IMG/VR virus record: IMGVR_UViG_3300029566_000017
Source of the DNA: a virus
Length of the DNA stretch: 61,839 nt
Direction: 5' to 3' (one strand)
Part shown: piece after piece, positions 20,924-24,793 of the stretch
Position numbering within the stretch: position 1 is the first letter of the stretch
How the letters are laid out: the number at the start of each line of letters is the position of its first letter
The notes under the pieces: model-generated
What the model was told of the DNA's origin: nothing
Seen by the model: only the letters and a program-made list of their open reading frames with translations
Database searches by the model: none
Position numbers and translations under genes: made by a program

Positions 20924-21613
20924 ATGGAAGATATGACTGTAAATGAAAATCAAAGCACGATAACCGTTCCGCTGGCGTATTTCGAAGAACTTATCGAACG
21001 TGTGGCAGAGCAGACCGCCAAAAAAACCTCTAAAAAGCTGTGTGATGATCTGTACAGCAAAGAAGCACAGCGGAGGGATTTCGACAAGCGACTGTATAAC
21101 GTGCGCTTGCTGCTAAAGAATTACAGAAGCCTTCAAGAACACGCAGCGTTAAAGACTAGCGAGGTTGTCAATATCGACGATGAGCAGATTTCTGCTATTG
21201 AGATTCTTGATTCGTTCCAAAACCTGAAAAGCATGGGAGCTAATGAGCTAAAGCTTGAAAGCATCATAAGCTCAACCATGCGAACGAAAGTGCTGATAAA
21301 CTACATGGACGATATGATAGCACTTTACAAGCAGACCAGGTATAACAGCGGCAAGCAGGAAGATTTGCGCCGGGCAGATGTACTTGACGTGCTGTTCCTT
21401 AAACCTTGTCCGCCGGAAGCGTATGTCACTGATATAGTCGCAAGCCTTGCGCAAAAATGGTCAGTAAGCGAAAGGCAGATATGGCGTGATACAAACGATG
21501 CTGTCGAGCAACTAACCGCTTTGCTGTTTGGCGTGGACGGCGTGAACCTGCTGGAAGATAAAAAGCGCAGAAGGGCAGCTCGCCTTGCTGAAGAAAAAAA
21601 TATCGAAAAATAA
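20924..21613 (+). CDS. Hypothetical protein, possibly a transcription regulator with a C-terminal HTH-like segment
   Basis: RBS AAGGGAG. It ends immediately upstream of the repeated promoter cassette. Confidence 0.5.
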   Translation: MEDMTVNENQSTITVPLAYFEELIERVAEQTAKKTSKKLCDDLYSKEAQRRDFDKRLYNVRLLLKNYRSLQEHAALKTSEVVNIDDEQISAIEILDSFQNLKSMGANELKLESIISSTMRTKVLINYMDDMIALYKQTRYNSGKQEDLRRADVLDVLFLKPCPPEAYVTDIVASLAQKWSVSERQIWRDTNDAVEQLTALLFGVDGVNLLEDKKRRRAARLAEEKNIEK

Positions 21614-21617
21614 TAAG

Positions 21618-21664
21618 AAAAACTCACCTTTTATAAAGAAAACTCTTTACAAAAGGTGAGTTTT
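21618..21664. terminator. 14-bp perfect hairpin AAAACTCACCTTTT...AAAAGGTGAGTTTT followed by a T-run
   Basis: Inverted repeat seen directly. The -35 box of promoter P1 lies in its loop. Confidence 0.55.
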
Positions 21665-21674
21665 ATAGTATAAT
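21646..21674 (+). promoter_or_regulatory. Promoter P1, TTTACA-17 nt-TATAAT. First copy of the repeated promoter-leader cassette.
   Basis: Consensus -35 and -10 boxes with 17-nt spacing. The downstream leader hairpin GTAGG...CCTAC and RBS GAAAGGAAGTCG are shared with 26686-26760. Confidence 0.55.
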
Positions 21675-21722
21675 ATAAGTGTAGGGAAGATAGAGTAACC
21701 TACAAGAAAGGAAGTCGTAAAA

Positions 21723-21899
21723 ATGACACAAGAAAAAATAACATTAGCATTAAGAGAAGCACTGCTAGATTGGTTCGACCTTAAAAAAATTGAAGACAAA
21801 TTCCCTAAAAGCAGCGTTGCTAGAAATAAAGCGCAACGAAAATGGAATGAGGTTGAAAAGCTTGCAAATATGCTGCAAGCAATCGAAGAAGCTAAATAA
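21723..21899 (+). CDS. Small hypothetical protein, 58 aa
   Basis: Leader GAAAGGAAGTCGTAAAA before the ATG. Confidence 0.4.
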   Translation: MTQEKITLALREALLDWFDLKKIEDKFPKSSVARNKAQRKWNEVEKLANMLQAIEEAK

Positions 21900-21962
21900 A
21901 AGCTGATGACAAGGGCAATAGCCCTTGTAAAGCTGGCAGGCAGACAGTTCAAACCCTGTGCC
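21898..21962 (+). ncRNA. Candidate structured RNA element, copy A: two hairpins, CUGAUGA-CAAGGGC-AAUA-GCCCUUG-UAAAGCU-GGC(AG)ACAG-UUCAAACC-CUGUGCC
   Basis: About 65 nt, 75% identical to 22647-22711. Every difference in the stems is compensatory. Confidence 0.45.
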
Positions 21963-21992
21963 TAAAGCTTAAACTTTAAGGAGGACTTAAAA

Positions 21993-22244
21993 ATGACTTA
22001 TCAAGAAAAGCAAGAAATGAAAAAGCTTGCCTGCAAATGCCTGGAAAAATACTTCGGCTTTGCTCCGGCTATGAAGCAGATTGTTCTGCTTGAAAGCGCA
22101 AGCAATGGATATACAGTTGATTATCTTCTGTTCAGCATCGGCTATAACGGAAGAGAATTTCAGCTCAGAAGAACCTTTACCTGGGGTAAAGATACAGTGG
22201 AATATAAATATTGCCGCTACGATGTTACCATGATTGAGCAATAG
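21993..22244 (+). CDS. Hypothetical protein
   Basis: RBS AAGGAGG. Confidence 0.5.
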   Translation: MTYQEKQEMKKLACKCLEKYFGFAPAMKQIVLLESASNGYTVDYLLFSIGYNGREFQLRRTFTWGKDTVEYKYCRYDVTMIEQ

Positions 22245-22260
22245 AAAGGAGTAGAGCACA

Positions 22261-22473
22261 ATGAAATTAACTATTAACCAATGGAAAAAGTTACTGGAAT
22301 TAGCAGAACGTGATTATTGCGAGAAAAAGAAAACTTACGATGAAGGACGTAAGCTTTGGGCATCACTAGGACATGATGACTGGGAGATTAACGAAAAATA
22401 TTTGCTCGTTGAAAAAGAGCGTAAGCAAGCAGCATATGATCTGTTGCAAGCGTTAAAGACTCAAACAATTTAA
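22261..22473 (+). CDS. Hypothetical protein
   Basis: RBS AAAGGAG. Confidence 0.5.
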   Translation: MKLTINQWKKLLELAERDYCEKKKTYDEGRKLWASLGHDDWEINEKYLLVEKERKQAAYDLLQALKTQTI

Positions 22474-22486
22474 GGAGGAAAAACCA

Positions 22487-22648
22487 ATGAAAGAACCTAA
22501 AGACATGACTAACGAAGAATTAAAGCAGGAAAACGCTAGGCTGATTAAGATTTACAACAGCTCGTGCGACCCATGGCATCATCAATGCTTGAATGAGCAC
22601 TTTGAAGAGCTGGAAGAAATTGCAGCGGAAAGAGGTATAGAGCTTTAA
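22487..22648 (+). CDS. Small hypothetical protein, 53 aa
   Basis: RBS AAGGAGG before the ATG. Confidence 0.4.
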   Translation: MKEPKDMTNEELKQENARLIKIYNSSCDPWHHQCLNEHFEELEEIAAERGIEL

Positions 22649-22711
22649 AAGCTGATGACAGGAGCTTAAGCTCCTGTAAAGCTACCGGGCAGAAGGTTCA
22701 AAGTCCTTGCC
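22647..22711 (+). ncRNA. Candidate structured RNA element, copy B: CUGAUGA-CAGGAGC-UUAA-GCUCCUG-UAAAGCU-GGC(AG)AAGG-UUCAAAGU-CCUUGCC
   Basis: Paralogue of 21898-21962 with compensatory substitutions in both stems. Confidence 0.45.
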
Positions 22712-22738
22712 AATAGTTTTAGAAAGGAAGTCGATTTT

Positions 22739-23203
22739 ATGAACTATGCAATTTTACTGAAAACTGTGGTTGATGCCAATGGCAAAACCAATTCTGTGGA
22801 GAAAGTACCATACGAGGGAGCTATCACGCTTAAGTCAATGTATGAACTGTGCGAATGCGAGTACGTCGACATTAAAGAAGTTCCGCTTCAGCTGGTAGAG
22901 TTCGACGGACAACTCGGAATCATTCCCGGTGTTACACTGATTTTCGATGAAGAATTTCTTCTGAAAAATGAAAACCCGGTGGCCAATGAGCTGGCAAGTG
23001 CTATTTATGGTTACGGCAGATTACATGACCAATGCTTGTGCGGTAACGTGCTTCTGTGCTACACAAACGAAGAAGGCGAATGTATGCCGTTCAGTGAGAG
23101 TGAAGCAAACATTGTTGTAAAGTGCTTAACAAGAATCAACAAGCATATTGGAGATATGGAATTTAAGGTCCAAAAACCAATGATGAAATTTATGACTTTT
23201 TAG
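22739..23203 (+). CDS. Hypothetical protein
   Basis: Leader GAAAGGAAGTCGATTTT before the ATG. Confidence 0.5.
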   Translation: MNYAILLKTVVDANGKTNSVEKVPYEGAITLKSMYELCECEYVDIKEVPLQLVEFDGQLGIIPGVTLIFDEEFLLKNENPVANELASAIYGYGRLHDQCLCGNVLLCYTNEEGECMPFSESEANIVVKCLTRINKHIGDMEFKVQKPMMKFMTF

Positions 23204-23215
23204 GAGGGATACATA

Positions 23216-23662
23216 ATGTTGAAATACAAAGATTACTCAACCTTGGTCAACGAACAGCAAAAGGAATACGAAAGCTTTACCAAAGATAAAATGTTCTTTG
23301 CTTTTACTGAAGAACAGTTCAACGAAGGCATGAAAAGATTTGGGTTAGCTCCTAATGATACCGACAAGGTTTATCAAATCGGCTTCGGAGGATATATCCT
23401 TCGTGCCCAGGCTAAGGCTCATAATGATTTAGTAAAACGCCTGAACATCGAAAAGAAGGAGCACATGAAAGATTTCGACTTCTTGAAATCAGCCTTCCGT
23501 TACGAACTTGCTAACCATGAGTTTTGTATAACTTATGAGCTTGACGATACGCTAGATGCTCTGCTTTTGACTTATGAGCAAGTTAACTCTGACCCGGTTA
23601 TAAAAAAAGCTTTACTTGAAGCCAAGAAAGAATATCTTAAGAATTGCGAAGATTGGATGTGA
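23216..23662 (+). CDS. Hypothetical protein
   Basis: RBS GGAGGGA. Confidence 0.5.
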   Translation: MLKYKDYSTLVNEQQKEYESFTKDKMFFAFTEEQFNEGMKRFGLAPNDTDKVYQIGFGGYILRAQAKAHNDLVKRLNIEKKEHMKDFDFLKSAFRYELANHEFCITYELDDTLDALLLTYEQVNSDPVIKKALLEAKKEYLKNCEDWM

Positions 23663-23838: not shown

Positions 23839-23901
23839 ATAAAAGAAAGAACCAGCGTACACCGAAAGGTGTGCGCTGGAAAAAAGATTGGAGTGAAAGT
23901 C

Positions 23902-24495
23902 ATGTGTAAAGTAGCAGATAAAAGTTACAAAGAGTTATGCGAAGCGTTGCTCGGAAAAGAAGCTTATAAGGTTTCTGAACTAACGGCACAGAAATTGTAT
24001 CGACTGGAAGATACCGACGAGCTGAAAGCATATGGATTAGACAAACAGAAAGCAGAAGCGTTCCTGTGTGGTGTAGAGTTAGGCAAAAGAGCTTTCACCG
24101 AAACCAAAGCTGAGGAAAAAAGATACTGCTGTGCTCCGCAAGACTTAGCTGAATATATGATGCCGAAGCTGCGGTATTTAAATCATGAAGAATTCTGGGT
24201 AATTGCAGCAGACAGCAAGAACAGAATAATTGAGGCAAGAGCTATACTGAAAGGAACGCTAACTAACTGTTATGTTCATCCTAGAGAGATTTTCAAGTAT
24301 GCCATCATGAAAAATGCTGCCGCAATTTTTGTAGCACATAATCATCCTTCAGGTCTTGCAACACCTAGCGCTGACGATAAAAAGTTAACCAGGGATATTG
24401 TTAAAGCCGGGGCAATAATGGGAATACCTTGCTATGATCATATCATTATAGGTGACGGCAGTTATTACAGTTTCCAGGAAGATGAACAAATGTAA
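23902..24495 (+). CDS. radC: RadC-like JAB/MPN domain protein
   Basis: JAMM motif HNHPSG...S.DD and a RadC-like N-terminal region. Confidence 0.8.
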   Translation: MCKVADKSYKELCEALLGKEAYKVSELTAQKLYRLEDTDELKAYGLDKQKAEAFLCGVELGKRAFTETKAEEKRYCCAPQDLAEYMMPKLRYLNHEEFWVIAADSKNRIIEARAILKGTLTNCYVHPREIFKYAIMKNAAAIFVAHNHPSGLATPSADDKKLTRDIVKAGAIMGIPCYDHIIIGDGSYYSFQEDEQM

Positions 24496-24508
24496 GGAGG
24501 AAAGAAAA

Positions 24509-24793
24509 ATGAACGCTTATGAAATTATGTACGTTATGCGCCCGGAGCAGGAAATAGTCGAGGATGTTATCTTGAAGTTCAATAACTTAATCGTTTCTAA
24601 TGGTGGCGTAGTTGAAAAGACAGAACGCTGGGGAGAAAGAAGGATGCCTTACGTGATTCAGGACTACGAGAACGGTATTTATGTCCTGGTTACGTTTCAT
24701 GCAAGCAAGAGGTGTGTACTCGAGCTTCACAAAGCAATGGAGATTACCGAAGAAGTGCTCCGGCATATGATTATCAGAAAGGGGGTATGCTAA
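24509..24793 (+). CDS. rpsF: Ribosomal protein bS6 homologue
   Basis: It aligns along the full length of E. coli S6 from memory. The query is MNAYEIMYVMRPEQ...ERWGERRMPY...YVLV...EVLRHMIIRK and E. coli has MRHYEIVFMVHPDQ...DWGRRQLAY...YVLM...AVIRSMVMRT. RBS AAGGAGG at 8 nt. Confidence 0.65.
   Translation: MNAYEIMYVMRPEQEIVEDVILKFNNLIVSNGGVVEKTERWGERRMPYVIQDYENGIYVLVTFHASKRCVLELHKAMEITEEVLRHMIIRKGVC

Follow-up and report, generated by a model that had tools for sequence, protein, structure and literature searches.

Two intercistronic elements in a phage genome are very probably type-P5 twister self-cleaving ribozymes

What kind of element is the 65-nt sequence that stands twice between short genes of this phage, and what does it do there? 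A first-pass annotation of the stretch of viral DNA analysed here (the window; 61,839 nt) had proposed, from the letters alone, that the two copies (A, 21898-21962; B, 22647-22711) are structured RNAs. We found that both are very probably type-P5 twister self-cleaving ribozymes within a polycistronic plus-strand phage mRNA. This assignment is based on family membership, covariation, conservation and position; from these we infer cleavage in vivo and an effect on expression. Feature coordinates are given in Table 1.

Table 1. Features of the locus. Positions are those of the window; scissile bonds, promoter and P5 strands are predictions.
Feature	Position	Strand	Basis
Promoter, near-consensus sigma-70 type, TTTACA-17-TATAAT	21646..21674	+	11/12 matches to consensus
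58-aa gene upstream of ribozyme A; stop ends 1 nt before P2	21723..21899	+	ORF list
Copy A, candidate P5 5′ strand AAGCU (last codons of 58-aa gene)	21889..21893	+	pairs with AGCUU 21966-21970
Copy A, twister ribozyme, P2 3′ strand to P4 extension	21901..21962	+	RF02684, own model
Copy A, P2 3′ strand AGCU (partner 21931-21934)	21901..21904	+	Rfam structure line, MFE fold
Copy A, loop L1 3′ strand GAUGA	21905..21909	+	alignment to consensus GAGgG
Copy A, P1 hairpin CAAGGGC-AAUA-GCCCUUG	21910..21927	+	Rfam, MFE fold
Copy A, predicted scissile bond U21928/A21929 (within U-A-A 21928-21930)	21928..21929	+	aligned to consensus UAA by P1
Copy A, P2 5′ strand AGCU (21931-21934) and T2 GG (21935-21936)	21931..21936	+	Rfam alignment
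Copy A, P4 hairpin and extension	21939..21962	+	Rfam, MFE fold
Copy A, downstream strand AGCUU, candidate P5 3′ strand	21966..21970	+	complementarity
RBS AAGGAGG (21978-21984) and start codon 21993 of gene after ribozyme A	21978..21995	+	sequence
Three-gene block (83, 70 and 53 aa) between the ribozymes	21993..22648	+	ORF list
Copy B, candidate P5 5′ strand UAGAGCU (end of 53-aa gene)	22638..22644	+	7-bp helix with 22714-22720, G-U included
Copy B, twister ribozyme, type P5	22650..22711	+	RF02684, own model
Copy B, L1 3′ strand GAUGA	22654..22658	+	Rfam alignment
Copy B, P1 hairpin CAGGAGC-UUAA-GCUCCUG	22659..22676	+	Rfam, MFE fold
Copy B, predicted scissile bond U22677/A22678	22677..22678	+	aligned to consensus UAA
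Copy B, P2 5′ strand AGCU and T2 AC	22680..22685	+	Rfam alignment
Copy B, P4 hairpin and extension	22688..22711	+	Rfam, MFE fold
Copy B, downstream strand UAGUUUU, candidate P5 3′ strand	22714..22720	+	complementarity
RBS AAGGAAG (22724-22730) and start codon 22739 of DUF3846 gene after ribozyme B	22724..22741	+	sequence

Copies A and B were identical at 49 of 65 positions (75.4%), in agreement with the 75% given before; both began with AAAAGCUGAUGACA, as had been noted, and their longest uninterrupted match was 14 nt. The first-pass annotation had described two hairpins, CAAGGGC/GCCCUUG (A) or CAGGAGC/GCUCCUG (B), and GGC(AG)ACAG/CUGUGCC (A) or GGC(AG)AAGG/CCUUGCC (B), with two compensated pairs in each. 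These descriptions were exact, the MFE fold reproduced both hairpins, and the two correspond to helices P1 and P4 of a twister ribozyme. The two-hairpin fold was incomplete, however, lacking helix P2 (AGCU/AGCU) and pseudoknots T1 and T2. The sequence of the joiner, UAAAGCU, had been read correctly, but it is no passive linker: it contains the predicted cleavage site (U/AA) and the 5′ strand of P2. The UUCAAA loop was identical in the two copies, as stated; however, the next bases differ (CC in A, GU in B) and find their pairing partners beyond the joiner (GG in A, AC in B), giving two more compensated pairs. All 16 differences between A and B were structure-neutral: six compensated pairs (two each in P1, P4 and T2), three P1-loop bases and one linker base. 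T1 (UGA/UCA) and P2 were the same in both copies, and T2 was GG/CC in A versus AC/GU in B.

The Rfam search recommended in the earlier annotation placed both copies above the gathering score (37.6 bits) of RF02684, the type-P5 twister ribozyme. Copy A matched at 21901-21959 with 44.7 bits (model positions 1-58/58), and copy B at 22650-22708 with 48.3 bits (full model, 58/58); E-values of the two in a whole-window search were 5e-7 and 5e-6. No Rfam family besides Twister-P5 was detected at E≤1 anywhere in the 61.8-kb window. Our own covariance model gave 75.4 bits for A and 79.9 bits for B, and no third copy, intact or degenerate, emerged in the window from this model or from Rfam at E≤1. Over 615 kb of related loci, our model recovered the known copies and only two extras: one (L082, 68.7 bits) that had been dropped earlier by a pairing filter, and a fragment truncated at the locus end (L002, 35.5 bits). 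Real copies scored at least 62 bits with this model and noise at most 16 bits. Relatives scored 44-56 bits against RF02684.

The twister class was reportedly described by Roth et al. in 2014 (Nat Chem Biol 10:56). Its architecture and conserved unpaired core are defined in PMC5408937, where T1 is an L1-L4 pairing and cleavage occurs at the U-A step adjoining P1. All three essential helices, P1, P2 (4 bp) and P4, were present in both copies, and the order of elements (permutation) in the RF02684 alignment was that of type P5. The conserved L1 G-A, the cleavage-site U-A-A, and the G, U, A-A and C of L4 were found in both. In copy A, G21905 aligned with the conserved L1 guanine of the consensus, T1 was formed by UGA 21907-21909 and UCA 21949-21951, and T2 by GG 21935-21936 and CC 21954-21955. 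Its P4 read GGC, AG bulge, ACAG, L4 UUCAAACC (21948-21955), CUGU and GCC, and L4 retained the G-C closing pair, U...A-A and C of the consensus GUCcCAAGCC. In copy B, the P2 5′ strand paired with 22650-22653, UGA 22656-22658 with UCA 22698-22700 (T1), and AC 22684-22685 with GU 22703-22704 (T2); P4 read GGC, AG, AAGG, L4 UUCAAAGU (22697-22704), CCUU and GCC. Every departure from the Rfam consensus fell on a pseudoknot or helix position and was compensated, e.g. T1 GgG/CcC changed to UGA/UCA. The two ribozymes are thus further members of a known family, and nothing new in kind. Their fold may be less stable than that of studied twisters, because T1 has two A-U pairs (G-C in the consensus) and P2 is just AGCU/AGCU. 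When flanks were included, the nested MFE fold favoured another register of the four AGCU tetramers, without P2; because the program is blind to pseudoknots and cannot score them, its comparison of this register with the twister fold is incomplete.

Approximately 100 related copies from IMG/VR contigs and Phascolarctobacterium genomes were checked for pairing, as had been suggested, and showed further covariation in P1, P4, T1 and T2. Retrieval of the relatives used patterns in which 21 core bases are fixed, followed by a filter on pairing. Standard pairs filled 96.7% of pair cells in 14 distinct relatives, a value that is inflated, like conservation, at the positions fixed by this procedure; 12 of the 23 pairs were changed on both sides. 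All T1 and T2 cells were paired. Both-side changes affected 2/3 pairs in T1 (UGA/UCA, CGA/UCG, CGG/CCG and UGG/CCA) and 2/2 in T2 (GG/CC in type A, AC/GU in type B, GC/GC in other types). The observed percentage paired or covariation score was attained in 0/500 shuffles, and shifting the 3′ partners along reduced pairing to 18-46%. T1 was also checked independently: in the genome scan its bases on either side were open to Y/R, and the six real hits all proved Watson-Crick-matched. P2 was invariant (AGCU/AGCU), being mostly fixed by the search patterns, and hence contributes no covariation evidence. These findings, together with the RF02684 match and the compensated changes between A and B, bear out the earlier claim of selection on RNA structure.

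Conservation extended to the unpaired core, which was invariant in the 14 distinct relatives. Among type A copies with full flanks (n=31), 4/62 positions varied, all of them P1-loop bases; among type B copies (n=48), the number was also 4 of 62, and in both types variation was confined to the P1 loop, bases next to it and the linker. Flanks of the same contigs varied at 52-158 of 180 positions. The GGC/GCC extension of P4 was constant in types A, B and C and absent from type D and from two further loci (L110 and L114). The source is an uncultivated gut phage, represented by IMG/VR contigs alone, at 86-95% identity across the stretches in common. Best matches of its terminase were <60% identical, and when the region was compared with 50,697 phage records by megablast and blastn, no cultured relative was matched.

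The elements might be twister-derived structures that no longer cleave and serve as intercistronic hairpins, either as RNase barriers or as protein binding sites. Such a role would account for two stable hairpins between genes and for a T1 and P2 weaker than consensus. However, the bases of the catalytic core are invariant although unpaired, both pseudoknots are maintained by compensatory change, and a hammerhead occupies the same slot in relatives. Because selection extends well past the hairpins, a simple hairpin role is insufficient, and we consider this explanation unlikely.

The position of the elements between genes was regular. A stop codon directly precedes each copy (TAA at 21897-21899 and 22646-22648), as noted before, and among 96 copies examined the upstream stop codon was ≤1 nt from P2 in 90 and the next start codon 20-32 nt downstream of the ribozyme. 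In A and B, start codons lie 30 and 27 nt past the element end, respectively. The distance from element to RBS, given earlier as 20-30 nt, was ~12-15 nt by our measurement. Each ribozyme occupies the gap from stop codon to next RBS. The 58-, 83-, 70- and 53-aa proteins encoded around and between the ribozymes had no significant PHROGs, Pfam or NCBIfam match. In relatives, the second gene of the block was swapped, the third was optional, and ribozyme spacing ranged from 589 to 821 nt. The downstream partner was twister B, a type D twister, whose T1 differs, or a type II hammerhead, likewise set between stop codon and RBS; type-C phages had the hammerhead in this place. The interchange of partner ribozyme classes in one slot suggests that selection acts on cleavage itself.

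An RNA processing site had been among the roles suggested earlier, and it agrees with the match to a self-cleaving family, from which cleavage would follow. We propose that the ribozymes most likely process a polycistronic phage mRNA, a role also suggested for bacterial twisters (PMC6765202). The transcript carrying both probably starts at the promoter upstream of the 58-aa gene, judging from its near-consensus hexamers. In each RNA, P2 and the P1 and P4 hairpins would form, and L4 would dock back through both pseudoknots, pairing with the GAUGA strand of L1 (T1) and, by its two bases immediately ahead of the closing C, with the dinucleotide that follows the P2 5′ strand (T2). Docking would build the active site around the U-A step adjoining P1, so that the 2′-OH of U21928 (A) or U22677 (B) could attack the neighbouring phosphate. 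The upstream product would end in the P1 hairpin with a 2′,3′-cyclic phosphate, and the downstream product would begin 5′-OH-AAAGCU. Three RNAs are predicted: one of ~250 nt for the 58-aa gene, an excised three-gene RNA of 749 nt (21929-22677), and a downstream RNA beginning at the DUF3846 gene. The pieces would thereby gain ends of their own, and with them stability and translation independent of upstream sequence.

The sequence that follows each ribozyme may contribute to such ends. AGCUU at 21966-21970 is complementary to AAGCU at 21930-21934 (P2 5′ strand) as well as to the end of the 58-aa gene, and in the MFE fold of the predicted cleaved 3′ product of A it paired with the 5′ end to give a 5′-terminal hairpin. 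In copy B, 22714-22720 (UAGUUUU; UAGCUUU in most relatives) is complementary to AAAGCUA at 22678-22684, the predicted 5′ end of the cleaved product, over 7 bp, a match reached in 0.1-0.5% of shuffles. The hairpin appeared in folded predicted cleaved products, and a downstream complementary strand was present in every type; its helices are short, and most are individually not significant. After cleavage, the 5′ end of the downstream product might thus refold with the conserved AGCUU/UAGCUUU strand just ahead of the RBS, and, at lower confidence, the ribozyme might act as a natural intercistronic insulator. The glmS ribozyme of Bacillus leaves a 5′-OH product that RNase J1 degrades; cleavage could therefore instead destabilise the downstream genes. 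Relief of RBS sequestration by cleavage was considered and rejected, folds of cleaved and uncleaved RNA showing no clear difference at the RBS.

The same downstream strands could form P5. A helix of 4-8 bp was possible in most flank classes, and its sequence changed with the class (GCUG/CAGC, CUAAGC/GCUUAG, AAGCUUCU/GGAAGCUU); it was mostly not significant against shuffles, and was weak or absent in two loci (L108 and L110). The P5 helix of copy A is a likely candidate, though individually weak against shuffles.

The tandem arrangement raises a further possibility, namely that the twin twisters excise the three-gene RNA (21929-22677) and that its ends are joined, by host RtcB or by the reverse reaction, into a circular mRNA. 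Ends left by self-cleaving ribozymes are RtcB substrates, and the two ribozymes lie on the same strand 749 nt apart. Copies A and B share the same P2 and T1, the contacts that span the two sides of the cut, so that the 5′ half of B could fold with the 3′ half of A as a hybrid and bring the ends next to each other. However, this identity arises partly by construction, the viral search pattern having fixed both. Hybrid compatibility also fails as a conserved feature: in three contigs that pair A with D (L006, L096 and L112) the hybrid T1 would contain a C-A mismatch, and no hybrid fold is possible in type-C phages, where the partner is a hammerhead. Perreault et al. sought circular or spliced products of hammerhead arrays and found none (PMC3088659). 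We regard circularisation as very improbable; if true, excision and ligation would yield a natural phage-encoded circular mRNA.

It is scarcely credible that the copies are DNA-level repeats, i.e. short homologous boundaries for recombination of phage modules with an incidental RNA fold. Three contigs (L050, L051 and L097) do combine the A upstream flank with a B-type core and lack the three-gene block, L096 combines a B-type upstream flank with an A-type core, and some homology breakpoints fall at ribozyme edges (21970-21979 and 22638-22646). Breakpoints were nevertheless commoner elsewhere (~20600, 21700, 22200 and 22400), so the ribozymes are not preferred sites within the region. Moreover, divergence between A and B is compensatory, preserving RNA pairing rather than DNA identity (longest shared run, 14 nt), and G-U pairs and strand-specific RNA-model matches point to a plus-strand RNA. 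Recombination at the repeats looks like a by-product.

A hammerhead, a C/D-box or K-turn RNA, or a tRNA-like element has practically negligible probability: the CUGAUGA box and the T-loop-like GUUCAAA that make these visible candidates (GGUUCAAA) are the twister L1/T1 strand and L4 loop, no hammerhead model matched at E≤10 in 21500-23000 (1.5 kb) or at E≤1 in the window, UAAA rather than the core GAAA follows the second stem, the snoRNA model scored 19.8 bits against a gathering score of 36, and ARAGORN found no tRNA in the window. The first-pass annotation had itself rejected a hammerhead despite the CUGAUGA box, correctly. An intrinsic terminator or attenuator was also rejected: a plus-strand terminator scan was empty at both elements, and no U tract follows the hairpins (UAAAGCU after P1; GCCUAAAG or GCCAAUAG after P4).

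The ribozymes proposed here to process the phage mRNA resemble several known systems. In common with type-P5 twisters they have P1, P2, P4, T1, T2, the U-A step by P1 and the conserved residues of L1 and L4; by their permutation, the termini would also lie where P5 is expected. They lack P3, as do ~20% of twisters (PMC5408937). Relative to the RF02684 consensus, T1 is UGA/UCA instead of GgG/CcC, the P2 pair adjoining L1 is reversed, a T2-P4 linker lengthened by 3 nt forms the GGC/GCC extension of P4 with its AG bulge, and the candidate P5, of 4-8 bp at most, runs into the 3′ end of the upstream gene. These differences all stay within the range of a family variant. Twister-sister ribozymes have vaguely similar helices and loop sequences (PMC5408937); however, their opposite strand is cleaved and they have no T1 or T2, whereas here both pseudoknots are present and covary. 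Within the twister clan, the Rfam assignment was Twister-P5.

In arrangement, the elements parallel the prophage hammerheads of Perreault et al. (2011, PMC3088659), which lie on either side of genes or small gene blocks and are active in cleavage both in vitro and in E. coli. Their clusters are likewise tandem, on one strand, in temperate phages, and bracket one or more variable genes. In both cases the neighbours are typical of anti-restriction loci: ardA in the hammerhead prophages (PMC3088659), DUF3846 and RadC-like genes here. The ribozyme classes are unrelated, however; both members of the present pair are twisters, and a type II hammerhead replaces the second in relatives.

Two engineered systems show how such elements might work. 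Tornado (Litke and Jaffrey 2019) is reportedly an engineered system for circular-RNA expression that uses twister ribozymes and RtcB. As here, two twisters flank an RNA, and the cleavage predicted here would leave the same 5′-OH and 2′,3′-cyclic-phosphate ends, which RtcB joins. In Tornado, a designed stem brings the ends together; the partner ribozymes in relatives of the phage are not cross-compatible. RiboJ (Lou et al. 2012, Nat Biotechnol) is said to be an engineered hammerhead insulator. RiboJ-type insulators are alike in working and not in family: a self-cleaving ribozyme and a hairpin stand just upstream of the RBS, and, as is predicted here, upstream RNA is removed and a defined structured 5′ end is left. 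Insulation by the natural elements would be a hypothetical counterpart, and the locus provides concrete constructs for asking whether ribozymes of this sort insulate or tune the expression of small phage genes, early or accessory, in a host from the gut Negativicutes.

Thousands of bacterial and prophage twisters and hammerheads are known, and their function is largely elusive (PMC6765202). The present locus does not settle that function but offers a neat natural setting in which to examine it: across related phages one slot is filled by three twister variants or a hammerhead. The exact fit between stop codon and RBS, conservation far above that of the flanking genes, and the interchangeable occupants of the slot support the view that what is selected is cleavage between cistrons.

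Exactly two matches were returned when the whole window was searched with cmscan against Rfam 15 at gathering thresholds (the curated Rfam scores), a search proposed in the first-pass annotation. Both were + strand matches to RF02684, the type-P5 twister ribozyme, spanned model positions 1-58 of 58, and lay in copies A and B, two repeated 65-nt elements that begin with AAAAGCUGAUGACA. No further Rfam match was found at E ≤ 10 in a 1.5-kb region or at E ≤ 1 in the whole window. A hammerhead, already judged a poor fit in the annotation, was ruled out, since no hammerhead model matched in these permissive searches. Copies A and B almost certainly belong to RF02684; every testable feature of the family was found in sequence, with P5 as a candidate helix and self-cleavage as a prediction. 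Reading of 21600-23000 and pairwise comparison gave 49 common bases out of 65 (75.4%; 75% had been claimed), and direct comparison bore out the two hairpins with compensated changes. As annotated, each element comes directly after a small ORF and its stop codon. The spacing to the next RBS was ~12-15 nt instead of the 20-30 nt proposed; start codons lie 30 nt (copy A) and 27 nt (copy B) beyond the element.

Features of the twister locus and of related loci (L-numbers, from IMG/VR contigs or a genome collection)
Feature	Position	Strand	Details
Hairpin	21619-21664		20-bp stem; right after stop of 229-aa gene; overlaps promoter -35 box
Promoter	21646-21674	+	near-consensus TTTACA-17-TATAAT; directly 5' of 58-aa gene
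ORF before copy A	21723-21899	+
AGCU site 1	21890-21893
Copy A	21898-21962
Copy A RF02684 match	21901-21959	+	44.7 bits (gathering 37.6); E 4.6e-6
P2 3' strand (A)	21901-21904	+	AGCU, site 2
L1 (A)	21905-21906	+	G21905, A21906
T1 strand (A)	21907-21909	+	UGA; pairs with UCA 21949-21951 in L4
P1 hairpin (A)	21910-21927	+	CAAGGGC-AAUA-GCCCUUG
Predicted cleavage step (A)	21928-21930	+	between U21928 and A21929; then A21930
P2 5' strand (A)	21931-21934	+	AGCU, site 3
T2 strand (A)	21935-21936	+	GG; pairs with CC 21954-21955 in L4
Linker (A)	21937-21938	+	CA
P4 extension 5' side (A)	21939-21943	+	GGC, then AG bulge
P4 5' strand (A)	21944-21947	+	ACAG
L4 (A)	21948-21955	+	UUCAAACC
P4 3' strand (A)	21956-21959	+	CUGU
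P4 extension 3' side (A)	21960-21962	+	GCC
AGCU site 4	21967-21970
ORF before copy B	22487-22648	+
Copy B	22647-22711
Copy B RF02684 match	22650-22708	+	48.3 bits (gathering 37.6); E 5.3e-7
DUF3846 gene	22739-23203		3' of ribozyme B
DUF7659 gene	23216-23662		3' of ribozyme B
RadC-like JAB protein gene	23869-24495		3' of ribozyme B
ORF matching 30S ribosomal protein S6	24452-24793	+	TIGR00166, 77.6 bits (cutoff 42.9); true start likely ATG near 24509
tRNA gene, L006	9849-9921	-	RF00005, 69.7 bits
tRNA gene, L112	112-184	+	RF00005, 69.7 bits
Type II hammerhead, L108	4886-4954	-	RF02276, 49-53 bits
Type II hammerhead, L113	7633-7701	+	RF02276, 49-53 bits
Type II hammerheads, L027, L028, L029, L033, L034, L084, L099			RF02276, 49-53 bits

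Helices (P), loops (L) and pseudoknots (T) were assigned from the Rfam alignment and the twister architecture of Gebetsberger and Micura (PMC5408937). On this anatomy, P1 corresponds to the annotated hairpin 1, and P4 with its extension to hairpin 2; the joiner UAAAGCU contains the predicted cleavage site and one P2 strand, the CUGAUGA box comprises the P2 end plus L1 and T1, and the loop reported as identical is L4. Copy B shares this layout; its predicted cleavage falls between U22677 and A22678, and its T2 is formed by AC (22684-22685) and GU (22703-22704). The 16 differences between the copies (two compensated pairs each in P1, P4 and T2, three P1-loop bases and one linker base) leave the twister fold undisturbed. 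The unpaired bases described as strongly conserved in the same review were all present: the U-A step, the next A, the L1 G-A, and the closing G-C, U and A-A of L4. Deviations from the Rfam consensus were confined to paired positions and all compensated; T1 is UGA/UCA versus GgG/CcC in the consensus. If the elements were non-cleaving twister relics, the conservation of the unpaired core and the retention of both pseudoknots would be left unexplained.

A pattern scan of IMG/VR yielded 106 loci, in which a structure-aware scan identified 95 copies whose helices and pseudoknots were all paired; the count rose to 101 once P4 was allowed to miss one pair and genome loci were included. The P1 hairpin was absent from chance pattern matches. 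The copies sort into four types, with T2 as GG/CC (A), AC/GU (B) or GC/GC (C and D), and T1 as UGA/UCA in types A-C and CGA/UCG or CGG/CCG in type D. In an alignment of 14 distinct sequences, 96.7% of pair cells held standard pairs and 12 of 23 pairs had changed on both sides (including two of three T1 pairs and both T2 pairs), figures affected by retrieval patterns that fixed 21 core bases including P2 and by a filter that demanded pairing. The observed percentage paired or covariation score was reached in none of 500 shuffles, and slid controls paired at only 18-46%. The cleanest independent check on pairing is a genome-collection scan in which T1 was left unconstrained as Y/R on both sides. 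It recovered six real copies in five of eight loci (four Phascolarctobacterium records, including P. succinatutens CAG:287, and one 'Bacilli bacterium' MAG), and T1 was Watson-Crick-matched in all six, a UGG/CCA variant among them. All relatives tested passed the Rfam gathering score. A purpose-built covariance model, applied to 615 kb of related DNA, made two additions to the filter set, a copy in L082 (68.7 bits) and a fragment at the end of locus L002 (35.5 bits); its scores showed a clean gap from 62 to 16 bits.

Constraint on the ribozyme is much stronger than on the genes it separates. Among 31 type A copies with 180-nt flanks, the four P1-loop bases alone were variable in the 62-nt ribozyme, against 101 and 111 positions in the two flanks. 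Among 48 type B copies, two loop bases, the base adjoining the loop and one linker base varied, against 158 and 52 flanking positions.

The ribozyme fills the intercistronic gap. An upstream ORF was identifiable for 96 of the 101 copies, and its stop codon ended within one base of P2 in 90 of these; the next start codon lay 20-32 nt beyond the ribozyme in the copies surveyed. In 29 DNA stretches, a B copy lies 589-821 nt downstream of an A copy (749 nt in the window), and in the gene block between them the first gene is retained, the second swapped and the third optional. Across the block (21993-22648) and ~30 related loci, the first gene (83 aa) is conserved, the second (70-103 aa) comes in three or more unrelated versions, and the third (53 aa) is present or absent. 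L050, L051 and L097 lack the block entirely and have the upstream flank of A fused to a B-type ribozyme. In three contigs, the twister downstream of A is of type D, with an intervening DUF3846 gene; two of these carry a tRNA gene ~2.8 kb upstream of the twister pair, whereas ARAGORN found none in the window. Circularisation of an excised block is unlikely, because the partner ribozymes in relatives are not cross-compatible. A DNA-level recombination signal is contradicted: chimeric junctions show that recombination occurs at the ribozymes, but the divergence of the copies keeps RNA pairing, not DNA identity, and homology breakpoints are not specially enriched there.

In type-C phages, a type II hammerhead lies ~1.03 kb downstream of the twister on the same strand in 9 of 11 Rfam-scanned loci, which include L018, whose 1,078 bases end short of the hammerhead position. 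One gene, of 314 aa, lies between the two ribozymes, and the hammerhead too is wedged between a stop codon and an RBS. The use of two unrelated ribozyme classes in one slot argues that cleavage itself is the selected trait. The 314-aa product has a J-domain-like HPD motif.

The window represents a temperate tailed phage, with integrase, replisome organiser, helicase loader, large terminase, portal and tape measure proteins, and its host is likely Phascolarctobacterium. Sequence searches of phage records found no close cultured relative; many IMG/VR contigs are 86-95% identical to it over shared stretches. Given the near-consensus promoter 5' of the 58-aa gene, both ribozymes are probably within a single transcript. 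The hairpin and promoter at 21619-21674 look like a combined terminator/promoter boundary, and the homology of several related contigs to the window begins exactly at 21619. The kinds of gene found 3' of ribozyme B (DUF3846, DUF7659 and RadC-like) often accompany anti-restriction genes on mobile elements; ~1.8 kb 3' of it, the S6-matching ORF appears to encode a phage bS6 homologue.

Judging from the family, the 2'-OH of U21928 or U22677 would make an in-line attack; the upstream RNA, ending in the P1 hairpin, would then carry a 2',3'-cyclic phosphate and the downstream RNA a 5'-OH at its start. Three pieces of transcript would result: one of ~250 nt for the 58-aa gene, one of 749 nt with three genes, and the rest from the DUF3846 gene on. 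The explanation as a whole, in which active ribozymes cut the polycistronic transcript in vivo, is highly probable on sequence grounds; an insulator or processing consequence has about an even chance.

A short strand just 3' of P4 (AGCUU in A, UAGCUUU in most B, UAGUUUU in the window's B, CAGC in C) can base-pair with the end of the upstream gene as candidate P5, or with the P2 5' strand. In folds of the cleaved products the new 5' end pairs with this strand, which puts a terminal hairpin at the start of the downstream RNA. The 5'-terminal helix reaches 7 bp in type B copies (equalled in 0.1-0.5% of shuffles) and 6 bp in L114 (2%); in other types it has just 4-5 bp and is not significant. More tentatively, such a hairpin could aid product release and protect the 5' end, and the element would then work like an engineered ribozyme insulator. 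The self-complementary tetramer AGCU occurs four times around each ribozyme (sites 1-4 in the table for copy A; equivalent sites at copy B) and can pair as 2/3 + 1/4 (P2 + P5, the active fold) or as 1/2 + 3/4. The nested MFE fold with flanks favours the latter register, without P2, in uncleaved RNA; this register may represent an inactive state or one adopted after cleavage. Type C does not conserve the 1/2 pairing.

Description of the twister class, P5 permutation included, goes back to 2014 (cited in PMC5408937). Bacterial twisters have gene neighbourhoods in common with hammerheads and lie near phage genes, and processing of polycistronic transcripts has been suggested for them (PMC6765202). 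In prophages, Perreault et al. described multiple hammerheads that border single genes or short gene blocks of variable content, ardA among them; the hammerheads were shown to cleave both in vitro and in E. coli, and circular products were raised as a possibility but not detected (PMC3088659). Copies A and B add two members to a known ribozyme family, in an arrangement of a known kind, and their value is as a clean, well-sampled natural system for asking what phage ribozymes are for. The locus is the twister counterpart of the prophage hammerhead arrays; ardA neighbours the latter, and DUF3846, DUF7659 and RadC-like genes follow ribozyme B.
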